9,356 nt of DNA from a virus (IMGVR_UViG_2744054627_000002), one strand, 5' to 3'. Counted from the stretch's first letter, positions 5,509-9,356 are shown. Notes: generated by a model from the sequence alone, not told the origin. Numbers and translations are program-made.

Positions 5509-7601
<2,093 letters not shown>

Positions 7602-7627
<26 letters not shown>

Positions 7628-8147
7628 TCAGCAACCCCGGTATCAGTTCATCCAGCGCGGCTGCTTTGTTCATGGCTTTGATGATATCCCGTTTCAGGAA
7701 ATCAACATGTCGGTTTTCCAGTTCCGGAAAACGCCGCTGCACCGACAGGGGGATCCCGTCGAGAATACTGGCAATTTCACCTGCGATCCGCGACAGCACG
7801 AAAGTACAGAATGCGGTTTCCACCACTTCAGCGGAGTCTCTGGCATTCTTCAGCTCCTGTGCGTCGGCCTGCGCACGCGTAAGTCGATGGCGTTCGTACT
7901 CAATAGTCCCTGGCTGGAGATCTGTCTCGCTGGCCTGCCGCAGTTCTTCAACCTCCCGGCGCAGCTTTTCGTTCTCAATTTCAGCATCCCTTTCGGCATA
8001 CCATTTTATAACGGCGGCAGAGTCATAAAGCACCTCATTACCCTTCCCACCGCCTCGCAGAACGGGCATTCCCTGCTCCTGCCAGTTCTGAATGGTACGG
8101 ATGCTCGCACCGAAAATGTCAGCCAGCTGCTTTTTGTTGACTTCCAT
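7602..8147 (-). CDS. nu1: Terminase small subunit gpNu1, 181 aa, intact
   Basis: ORF translates to MEVNKKQLADIFGASIRTIQNWQEQGMPVLRGGGKGNEVLYDSAAVIKWYAERD..., lambda Nu1 with its N-terminal helix-turn-helix; 546 nt; the 3' end overlaps the A start by 26 nt as in lambda. Confidence 0.92.
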
Positions 8148-8149
8148 TG

Positions 8150-8240
8150 TTCATTCCACGGACAAAACAGAGAAAGGAAACGACAGAGGCCAAAAACCCG
8201 TTTTCAGCACCTGTCGTTTCCTTTCTTTTCAGAGGGTGTT
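8150..8240 (-). promoter_or_regulatory. cosB: terminase (gpNu1) binding region with R-site inverted repeats
   Basis: Perfect 15-bp inverted repeats GAAAGGAAACGACAG (8162..8176) and CTGTCGTTTCCTTTC (8211..8225), the lambda R-site motif, immediately upstream of Nu1. The segment between them differs from the lambda sequence I recall. Confidence 0.7.
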
Positions 8241-8310
8241 TTAAATAAAAACATTAAGTTACGGCGAAGAAGAACGGAAACGCCTTAAACCGGGAAATTT
8301 TCATAAATAG

Positions 8311-8380
8311 CGAAAACCCGCGCGCCTTCCGCCCCGTAACCTGCCGGATCGCCGGAAAGGACCCGCAGAAATGAGCGGGT
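8311..8380 (-). other. cosN plus cosQ-like sequence (cohesive-end site) with a variant right half of cosN
   Basis: Minus strand reads GGGTCCTTTCCGGCGATCCGGCAGGTTACG-GGGCGGAAGGCG-CGCGGGTTTTCGCTATTTATG. Flanks match lambda, but the 12 nt equivalent to lambda's cohesive end GGGCGGCGACCT is GGGCGGAAGGCG (window 8323..8334). Confidence 0.7.
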
Positions 8381-8410
8381 TAACATATGTTTATTTGCGG
8401 CAAAAATTAC

Positions 8411-8440
8411 AGATATAAAAAAGCCCCGCATCGCGGGGCT
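8411..8440 (-). terminator. Rho-independent terminator for minus-strand transcription
   Basis: 8-bp GC stem (8423..8429 pairing 8433..8439, 3-nt loop), followed on the minus-strand transcript by UUUUUU (plus-strand A run 8417..8422); sits 20 nt after the stop of the 71-aa gene. No U-tract in the other direction. Confidence 0.7.
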
Positions 8441-8461
8441 ACAGATAGGCGTGGCTACTCA

Positions 8462-8677
8462 TTAGCTGACTTCAACAAATATAAAATCATCACTGCCTAA
8501 ACAATGAGAGCCATAACGAACTTCATACTCCCCATTCAATTCAGAGCATTTAGACTTCGCATCGCCTTCCGTTGCATAAACACCAACAAGATGCCATGGC
8601 TTGTAACGTACTACAGCCCAACCAAGAACCCATCCTTGATTATCAGGATCTGCCTTCAGGTTATTTTCCACAAACAT
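8462..8677 (-). CDS. Hypothetical small protein, 71 aa, no recognised family
   Basis: ATG at 8675..8677 (complement) preceded by AAGGAG at 7-nt spacing; bounded by an in-frame stop upstream; product MFVENNLKADPDNQGWVLGWAVVRYKPWHLVGVY...; AT-richer than the head genes. Confidence 0.6.
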   Translation of the reverse strand: MFVENNLKADPDNQGWVLGWAVVRYKPWHLVGVYATEGDAKSKCSELNGEYEVRYGSHCLGSDDFIFVEVS

Positions 8678-8716
8678 AGTATTCTCCTTTGGGTACCCGG
8701 AGATATTCTATGCCAT

Positions 8717-8941
8717 TCAATAAACAGGCAGCAATGTAGCTGATACAATCTCCGCCATATTTGAATTCAGATCACACTCCACGGAGATTTCTTCATCCAT
8801 GGCACTCACTTCATATGTTCGTGAATAACCTTCAGTGCATTTACCACTGAAGATATCCTTAACCAGAACACGTCCACGCTGTAAAACCCTGAATGGAATC
8901 GTTCCGTTAAAGGGCTTTACGGTTACCAGTAATCTCTTCAT
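8717..8941 (-). CDS. Hypothetical small protein, 74 aa (internal ATG of track ORF 8717..9043)
   Basis: ATG at 8939..8941 (complement) preceded by GGAGGGG at good spacing; product MKRLLVTVKPFNGTIPFRVLQRGRVLVKDIFSGKCTEGYSRTYEVSAMDEE...; the next gene starts 39 nt after its stop. Confidence 0.5.
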   Translation of the reverse strand: MKRLLVTVKPFNGTIPFRVLQRGRVLVKDIFSGKCTEGYSRTYEVSAMDEEISVECDLNSNMAEIVSATLLPVY

Positions 8942-9103
8942 ATCCCCTCCGGATAAAAATGCCCCTTGCCGACCGGGCAGTTGCTTGATTCGGCAAGATT
9001 TAGAATGAATAAGATAAAATTGACACACGCAGCAGAATTTCATGCTTTACGGACGCTGGCGACCCCTTCATTTTTCAGCAAAATATTCTGCCATTTCAGT
9101 CAT

Positions 9104-9286
9104 TCAGTTATGCATACACTGTCGGACACCATTGACAATTTCACAGACCTGAGAGGCAGCATCCAAAAGCTGACGCGCCCTATCCAGGCTGACGCATCCC
9201 GCCAATAAAAAAGGCACCAGTATCGCTACCAGTGCCCATTTCGCCGTCGTTCGCGGCATTCTGTGTGTCCAGTGTTTTCTGCTCAT
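9104..9286 (-). CDS. Putative small lipoprotein, 60 aa (signal peptide with lipobox LLAGC)
   Basis: MSRKHWTHRMPRTTAKWALVAILVPFLLAGCVSLDRARQLLDAASQVCEIVNGVRQCMHN: basic N-region, hydrophobic core, L-A-G-C lipobox, no Asp at +2; AGGTGG upstream of the ATG. The frame stays open to the window end, so a longer protein cannot be excluded. Confidence 0.4.
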   Translation of the reverse strand: MSRKHWTHRMPRTTAKWALVAILVPFLLAGCVSLDRARQLLDAASQVCEIVNGVRQCMHN

Positions 9287-9300
9287 AACCCACCTGATTA

Positions 9301-9356
9301 TCAGCGCTTCAACTGAAAGTGAGGTCCGTCTTTCAGCGTTTTCCAGTCCCCGCCCC
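9301..9356 (-). CDS. Possible 3' end of an upstream late-region gene (partial, continues beyond the window end)
   Basis: A minus-strand frame is open from the window edge (...GGDWKTLKDGPHFQLKR) and ends in tandem stops TGA-TAA at 9298..9303, 11 nt before the lipoprotein ATG. Only 18 codons are visible. Confidence 0.25.
   Translation of the reverse strand, partial: GGDWKTLKDGPHFQLKR

Follow-up and report, generated by a model that had tools for sequence, protein, structure and literature searches.

The shortest "separated" two-component spanin was called computationally, as a singleton family, in phage phiP27 (Kongari et al, 2018; PMC6139136). Its outer-membrane subunit (o-spanin; 20706-20861) comprises 51 amino acids (aa) as called and 30 mature residues, 25 of which are predicted to be helical, and its inner-membrane subunit (i-spanin) was placed at 20348-20542. 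Also described is the disruptin of phage phiKT (gp28), a small amphipathic helix that is cationic and not lipidated (bioRxiv 10.1101/515445). The locus compared with these systems here lies on a stretch of 9,356 nucleotides (nt) of viral DNA (IMGVR_UViG_2744054627_000002; "the window" denotes this whole stretch), whose source is a lambda-like Escherichia coli prophage read backwards, the minus strand being the forward direction of the phage. Between the end of an M15-family endolysin gene and the cohesive-end site cos, three small minus-strand genes encode a predicted lipoprotein of 60 aa and two soluble proteins of 74 and 71 aa. A first reading, made from the sequence alone (the sequence-only reading), had taken the three for a single accessory cassette. 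They belong, however, to two independent modules: the lipoprotein gene is the terminal (fourth) gene of a phiP27-type lysis cassette, whereas the 74/71 pair fits the pattern of a mobile, late-transcribed accessory two-gene module. The explanation covering both, i.e., a phiP27-type lysis lipoprotein module beside a mobile pair that acts late in infection, is given a probability of about 0.55.

Two modules between the endolysin gene and cos

To split the region, several hundred related loci were compared; the IMG/VR loci among them are partly redundant, near-duplicate prophages included. Phages phiSTEC1575-Stx2k and phiP27 share with the window only 9286-8985 (the lipoprotein gene plus ~120 nt), and homology to them stops near 8985. 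In E. coli SBF22 and six other genomes, only 8959-8150 is shared, a segment with a ribosome-binding site (RBS), both genes of the 74/71 pair, the terminator, and cos. Homology to SBF22 starts at 8959, just upstream of the RBS and only 18 nt before the ATG of the 74 gene, and in this strain the 74/71 segment directly follows an ordinary essD-rrrD-Rz cassette. Among complete E. coli genomes (n = 5426), the lipoprotein module was found in 313 and the pair in 44. With separate recombination boundaries and separate distributions of lipoprotein and pair, the single three-gene cassette had to be abandoned; recombination would have brought two unrelated modules together in the interval from the endolysin gene to cos. 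That the junction between lysis genes and cos is a variable slot, as the sequence-only reading had it, was borne out. The features concerned are the following, with E-values for full-length PHROG matches and with the ratio of nonsynonymous to synonymous substitution rates (dN/dS) from pairwise comparison with diverged copies.

9301..9356, minus strand: 3′ end of the M15-family metallopeptidase (endolysin) gene, from the annotation of E. coli PEC41 and open reading frames (ORFs); TGA stop codon at 9303..9301
9104..9286, minus strand: 60-aa prolipoprotein gene, last gene of the phiP27-type lysis cassette, in the spanin slot; phrog_7528 (E 8e-35); dN/dS 0.30
8942..9103, minus strand: non-coding spacer with the recombination boundary between the lipoprotein and 74/71 modules, from alignment query coordinates
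8717..8941, minus strand: gene for the 74-aa soluble protein, first of the mobile pair; predicted small β-sandwich; phrog_2571 (E 2e-26); dN/dS 0.28
8462..8677, minus strand: gene for the 71-aa soluble protein, second of the mobile pair; predicted small α/β protein; phrog_4280 (E 3e-40); dN/dS 0.12
8412..8440, minus strand: intrinsic terminator closing the 74/71 module, AGCCCCGCGATGCGGGGC followed by T6; it also accompanies the pair in SBF22

The closest match to the window is E. coli PEC41, isolated from swine (99.8% across the 8150-9356 junction and 98.1% across the whole window), and 8411-9303 is identical in both; 9303, where the sequence-only reading had let the cassette end, is the first base of the endolysin stop codon. 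The same three ORFs were found again in hundreds of assemblies, many of them independent, and all three genes are under purifying selection. That the ORFs are read-error fragments of one gene is ruled out by the identity to PEC41, the recurrence, and the dN/dS values. Shine-Dalgarno motifs were read for all three (caGGTGGgttATG, ccGGAGGggatATG, and aAAGGAGaatactATG); the 74-aa ORF begins at an internal ATG of a 108-aa ORF. GC content is 0.43-0.47 across 8100-9300, compared with 0.52-0.63 in the head genes. The stem of the terminator (8440..8422) has 8 bp, 7 of them GC pairs (−15.8 kcal/mol, z −3.4), is followed by a T-run, and lies ~90 bp ahead of the lambda-type cos. The sequence-only reading was thus correct in describing three intact minus-strand genes with ribosome-binding sites, AT-richer than the head genes and followed by a strong terminator before cos.

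It was also correct in recognizing none of the products: family and profile searches gave no match to a characterized protein. Scans of the three proteins against Pfam, NCBIfam, and PADLOC returned nothing significant, sequence-profile searches against the PDB nothing below E 0.02, and comparison with lambda R, Rz, Rz1, Bor, lambdap78, and lambdap79 no similarity. Of the two kinds of homology that the sequence-only reading had named as refuting it, that to lambda right-end ORFs is rejected, and that to lysis proteins holds in part: the lipoprotein is of the same family as the o-spanin called in phiP27 (82% identity to the phiP27 ORF 20679-20858). The three PHROG families are all listed as "unknown function" and do not include the linkage patterns described here. 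The function of all three proteins is inferred throughout.

The lipoprotein in the spanin slot

Loci carrying the lipoprotein (94) were gathered, and reference genes were located in them by tblastn. An endolysin gene is upstream of the lipoprotein gene in 88 of them, the order being PF16931 holin (holin8), PF05449 holin (holin3_7), endolysin (M15 or GH108), optional small ORFs, and lipoprotein; both holin genes of the present cassette lie outside the edge of the window. The M15 endolysin frame in the window ends ...DWKTLKDGPHFQLKR*, and the lipoprotein ATG follows 14 nt past its stop codon, which is the commonest arrangement (40 loci); a start not more than 16 nt from the endolysin stop, or overlapping it, was seen in 46 loci. 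Linkage is kept in Citrobacter braakii, where the start of the lipoprotein gene and the end of a GH108 endolysin gene share ATGA; the genes that come after (ParB, TAGT, and Terminase_2) are unrelated to those of lambda and represent a different packaging module. An independent second set, seeded from the PF05449 holin, comprised 75 assessable loci; the lipoprotein follows the endolysin in 70 and is lacking in 4, of which the one inspected (L305) is clearly rearranged. From both sets it follows that the lipoprotein co-varies with the holin/endolysin module and not with tail or packaging modules. At one locus (L300, 3501-4609), phiP27-type holins and an M15 endolysin are followed by a canonical Rz gene with embedded, proline-rich Rz1 instead of the lipoprotein, so a spanin can replace the lipoprotein positionally. 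The gene thus lies, as o-spanin genes do, in the lysis cassette beside endolysin and holin genes, and is not accessory content; the latter designation, applied to all three genes by the sequence-only reading, stands for the 74/71 pair only. A match of 91% identity to the lipoprotein module was also found in Actinobacillus phage vB_Apl-pPE4 (PP818812.1, 20079-20380; recorded host Actinobacillus pleuropneumoniae), for which either the host assignment or the purity of the record may be in doubt.

The lipoprotein has a basic n-region, a hydrophobic core (WALVAILVPFLL), and a lipobox, L-A-G-C, with the cysteine at position 31 and valine at +2. Lack of aspartate at +2 of the lipobox cysteine, as in o-spanins, predicts sorting to the outer membrane. 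After processing at Cys31, the mature peptide would have 30 residues (CVSLDRARQLLDAASQVCEIVNGVRQCMHN), with no proline and a net charge of 0, and is predicted to be helical. An alignment of 23 homologues showed the lipobox to be invariant, and Cys48, Cys57, and most of the helix to be conserved. Amphipathicity is moderate (hydrophobic moment of the best 18-mer, 0.55), with the hydrophobic residues in a heptad-like a/d/g pattern. A C-terminal transmembrane segment, as in a unimolecular spanin (u-spanin), is absent: the mature peptide ends ...GVRQCMHN and contains no hydrophobic segment. The colicin lysis protein family (Pfam PF02402, Lysis_col) gave no match at E ≤ 1.

Within the coding region of the signal peptide lies a further feature:

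9212..9237, minus strand: hairpin resembling a terminator, of 11 pairs (−18.5 kcal/mol, z −4.2) and followed by T6

It is almost invariant in ~125 copies, despite the fact that the gene overall is only 80-90% identical. It may serve as an attenuator within the gene that only Q-modified polymerase passes, or may simply result from the codons for LVAILVPFLL.

The lipoprotein is best read as an outer-membrane-anchored lysis factor in the spanin slot. It would be exported, would receive its lipid at Cys31, and would end up in the inner leaflet of the outer membrane, so that its part in the periplasm would be an amphipathic peptide of 30 residues that is probably helical and possibly linked by disulfides. 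After holin and endolysin, it would breach the outer membrane at the last step of lysis, the job done in lambda by Rz/Rz1. Instead, the lipoprotein could be a Bor-, Cor-, or Llp-like moron for lysogenic conversion or exclusion that masks a receptor or alters the cell surface and merely adjoins the lysis genes. Lambdoid phages often encode small outer-membrane lipoproteins of this type, the mature peptide differs from typical proline-rich o-spanins, and no i-spanin is present; furthermore, lambda bor is located just after Rz, i.e., lipoprotein morons also follow lysis genes, which speaks against a lysis factor. However, bor is on the opposite strand, whereas the lipoprotein gene is co-oriented with that of the endolysin, at the short distances given above. 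Its linkage to holin and endolysin persists across at least three packaging/morphogenesis modules, whereas a receptor-masking protein should co-vary with the tail module, and Rz/Rz1 occupies the very same slot in L300. BLASTP found no similarity to lambda Bor, the only one of the three moron types compared. A role in conversion or exclusion is, therefore, rather unlikely, and a lysis factor remains the preferred reading of the lipoprotein.

The 74/71 pair and its surroundings

Neither protein of the pair has a signal peptide or a transmembrane domain (TMD). AlphaFold2 modeled the 74-aa protein as a small β-sandwich (predicted local distance difference test [pLDDT] score, 88) and the 71-aa protein as a β-β-α-β-β domain (pLDDT 92.5). 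Fold comparison of both models gave no informative match and no toxin, antitoxin, nuclease, or NTPase fold; a Foldseek search of BFVD with the 71-aa model gave no match at E ≤ 0.001. A profile of the 74 family, which has the motif MKxLxVT...FxVxQxGxxL...SGK...Y.V, was run against 1.84 billion representatives and returned 49 matches, mostly small phage-like proteins; large multi-repeat matches to the profile (cystatin, Big_13, and zinc-finger proteins) look spurious. When all alignment members were compared with Pfam, only sub-threshold matches were obtained, to DUF7457/DUF7336/DUF7095 for the 71-aa family and to FNIII-A_GpJ for the 74-aa family.

Linkage was counted in 78 loci with a 71-family gene and 78 loci with a 74-family gene, 73 loci being assessable for the lysis neighbor. 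A 74-family ORF is immediately upstream of the 71-family gene in 56 of the 78 loci, even in some where it is highly diverged (mEp237 gp60-gp61, and L101); the 71 gene stands alone in 21/78 loci and the 74 gene in 60/78. The 74 gene follows Rz in 52 loci and the lipoprotein gene in 19, and thus comes after the last lysis gene in 71 of the 73 assessable loci. It follows Rz in many Stx1 and Stx2 phages, and in Stx phages the start codon of the 74 gene and the stop codon of Rz overlap (ATGA). In Citrobacter/Enterobacter-type phages (L344-L347, 3708-4222), a 74/73-aa pair is found as a unit among tail genes, between a tail chaperone-like DUF6246 gene and an arc/antirepressor (arc/ant) island, ahead of the tape-measure gene; this second site of insertion is independent of lysis. 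Wherever it occurs, the pair runs in the direction of the late genes, and the gaps range from −4 to 162 nt. At one locus (L099, 131-1147), the 74-aa domain forms the C-terminal end of a 225-aa protein, which has a weak match to the lambda tail-tip family in its N-terminal part (PF09327, E 0.0017); encoded next is a 94-aa protein with a hairpin domain of the Acb2/Tad1 type (PF24729, a family of anti-CBASS/anti-Thoeris sponges), which is an anecdote only.

A crude consensus scan found no promoter-like (sigma-70-like) site upstream of the pair on the minus strand. The second module (8959..8412) would, thus, be a mobile unit with an RBS of its own, the genes for the 74-aa and 71-aa proteins, and the terminator; as no own promoter was detected, transcription would be as part of the late operon. 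Like a moron, the pair is present, after Rz or the lipoprotein gene, in a minority of otherwise similar prophages, and its GC content is low (0.43, compared with 0.55-0.6). This fits the pattern of a mobile, late-transcribed accessory two-gene module. Its two products may perhaps work together late in infection, as binding proteins modulating functions of the host or of competitors; on the best explanation, they would be neither enzymes, nor a toxin-antitoxin system, nor a known defense system.

Alternatively, the pair might be a lysis accessory, which enters the periplasm through the holin lesions, binds envelope glycans, and helps or times their breakdown. On this reading, the two proteins, without a signal peptide like soluble endolysins, would act as a β-sandwich of the carbohydrate-binding-module type (74) and a SPOR-like α/β domain (71). 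The position of the 74 gene after the last lysis gene, up to overlap with Rz, speaks for it. However, the structural and sequence similarities are all generic or below significance, the pair also occurs among tail genes, far from lysis genes, otherwise identical lysis cassettes do without it, and only 44 of the 5426 genomes carry it. Such a contribution to lysis is quite unlikely, and the mobile accessory pair remains the preferred reading.

In the phage's forward direction, the order is end of the M15 endolysin gene, 60-aa lipoprotein, 74-aa protein, 71-aa protein, terminator, cos, Nu1, terminase large subunit, and head genes. The neighboring features are:

8323..8334, minus strand: homologue of the 12-nt cohesive end of lambda cosN, GGGCGGAAGGCG, compared with GGGCGGCGACCT in lambda; next comes cosB, which reaches as far as the start of Nu1 (8147)
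8147..7602, minus strand: Nu1 gene, downstream of cos

The assignment of cos relies on a 94% alignment of the window to the lambda left end. The cohesive-end homologue differs from that of lambda at 5 of 12 positions, whereas the flanking cosB and Nu1 are ~95% lambda-like; PEC41 is identical there. An Rfam scan of 8100-9356 gave no credible match. Between 88 and 8196, the window differs from PEC41 by 27 one-base deletions and 1 one-base insertion (28 gap columns, 27 gap openings), located, e.g., at 6586, 6194, 6169, 5931, 5912, 5581, 5257, 5019, and 4452, and none of them within 8411-9303. The deletions break the genes for the terminase large subunit, portal, protease, and capsid into many ORFs, whereas the PEC41 genes are intact. 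Because all of these frame breaks are absent from the near-identical PEC41, they resemble read error of the homopolymer type and not decay. Outside the window, the PEC41 prophage (L002, 4010-4165 and 6326-7561) carries hokD, a gene for an AraC-family regulator, and tRNA-Gly as additional accessory cargo between the Q-like region and the lysis cassette.

The partner question and comparison with known systems

The i-spanin ORF assigned in phiP27 (NC_003356, 20348-20542; L009, 2174-2368) encodes 64 aa, has a TTG start, and overlaps with a 90-aa ORF of the opposite strand that looks more like a genuine protein; no counterpart was found in ~90 related cassettes. As this TTG ORF is not conserved and overlapped by a better one, the published two-component call looks doubtful. 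Neither the window nor the PEC41 cassette contains, in any frame, an ORF with the N-terminal TMD and the periplasmic domain of an i-spanin, and an inner-membrane spanin partner is absent here and in about half of the loci. A hidden spanin, embedded or nested as in LambdaSo (bioRxiv 10.1101/2024.01.23.576932), was considered as well, but there is no candidate ORF. A 2025 paper on Stx2e in PLoS Pathogens mentions neither a spanin nor the lipoprotein. In ~40% of the loci, tiny TMD proteins are encoded just upstream of the lipoprotein gene, abutting or overlapping its start (e.g., L001 3326-3499; L003 3129-3302; L075; and L068); such genes are absent from the window. These proteins, either of 57/60 aa with a C-terminal TMD or of 44 aa with a single TMD, have almost no soluble or periplasmic domain and might either regulate lysis or serve the lipoprotein as minimal partners.

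In the present prophage, the lipoprotein appears to act without a recognizable inner-membrane partner. It is conceivable, although doubtful, that it is a stand-alone outer-membrane disruptor, i.e., a lipid-anchored helix, possibly oligomerized via the two conserved cysteines, that replaces the spanin complex without a partner. That the lipoprotein is instead a remnant, non-functional in this context because its true partners, the 57/60-aa and 44-aa membrane proteins, were lost, is improbable. The loci with such ORFs at the lipoprotein start and the many frame-breaking differences in the head genes of the window would be in keeping with a remnant, but the 14-nt arrangement of M15 endolysin and lipoprotein is the commonest one and under purifying selection, the small TMD proteins are unlike i-spanins in almost lacking a periplasmic domain, and the frame breaks in the window, one-base deletions absent from PEC41, resemble sequencing errors. 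A single accessory cassette with a defense, exclusion, or toxin-antitoxin function for the lysogen, the suggestion of the sequence-only reading, would suit a known variable slot, the AT-richness, the terminator, and the uncharacterized products, but is highly improbable and largely refuted by the distribution data, as the three genes do not travel together, PADLOC-DB v2 has no match to any of the three proteins at E ≤ 1, the models show none of the respective folds, no promoter of its own was detected, and obligate toxin-antitoxin pairing is incompatible with the occurrence of each pair gene alone.

The joint explanation of a lysis lipoprotein beside a mobile late pair is thus preferred, despite several observations that do not favor it. 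The mature peptide contains no proline, compared with 11 of 42 residues in Rz1 of a Stx2 phage, which is atypical for an o-spanin, and with only 30 residues it is too short for bridging the periplasm. The o-spanin label in the literature is itself computational. If the small upstream TMD proteins were partners, their loss would make this copy of the lipoprotein defective. Co-occurrence of the pair is incomplete, the 71 gene being present in only 18 of the 78 loci with a 74-family gene, and in Pseudomonas phages the 71 family is found without a 74-family neighbor. Finally, because the IMG/VR loci are partly redundant, all locus counts represent patterns and not independent events.

It was already known that the lipoprotein is in a family computationally listed as o-spanin and that each gene of the pair is in a PHROG family. 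Of most interest is a lipoprotein that occupies the spanin slot without a partner. If it breaches the outer membrane alone, the last step of lysis by Gram-negative phages would have a third route, in addition to spanins and the cationic disruptin; this would widen the range of lysis mechanisms known and, if true, would explain part of the ~15% of Gram-negative phages reported without a convincing spanin. The lipoprotein is carried by ~6% of complete E. coli genomes, Stx2e and Stx2k phages included; because the cassette controls release of these phages, how it brings about lysis matters for the release of toxin. Widespread and conserved in temperate enterobacterial phages, the 74/71 pair is a module of the late operon, for whose function the linkage data are a rational starting point, but no more.

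Compared with morons (lambda bor, lambdap78/79, and HK97-type), the pair is likewise polymorphic in presence or absence between conserved modules, has a lower GC content, and brings its own terminator; it differs in having no detectable promoter of its own, in being co-oriented with the late operon, and in lacking similarity to lambda right-end ORFs. Colicin lysis or bacteriocin release proteins and entericidins (Pfam Lysis_col) are tiny envelope-permeabilizing lipoproteins with mature peptides of ~25-30 residues, encoded by plasmid or chromosomal genes; they resemble the lipoprotein of the window in size only and are not encoded in phage lysis cassettes. The u-spanin of T1 (gp11) and the phiKT disruptin likewise stand for disruption of the outer membrane by a single gene in phages without Rz/Rz1, but the former has a C-terminal TMD, which the window lipoprotein lacks, and the latter is cationic and unlipidated, whereas the peptide encoded here has a net charge of 0 and is predicted to be lipid-anchored. 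With lambda Rz/Rz1, the lipoprotein shares the position after the endolysin at the end of the cassette and, with its 60 aa, the size of Rz1; an inner-membrane subunit of the Rz type and any sequence relationship to Rz1 are missing, and mature Rz1 is proline-rich and 40 aa long, whereas the mature peptide of the window is predicted to be helical, is proline-free, and is 30 aa long. Closest is the "separated" spanin of phiP27 (PMC6139136): the i-spanin assigned there has no counterpart in the window, where the lipoprotein gene comes directly after that of the endolysin, but the cassette (holin, holin, and M15 endolysin) is the same, and the mature peptide likewise has 30 residues.

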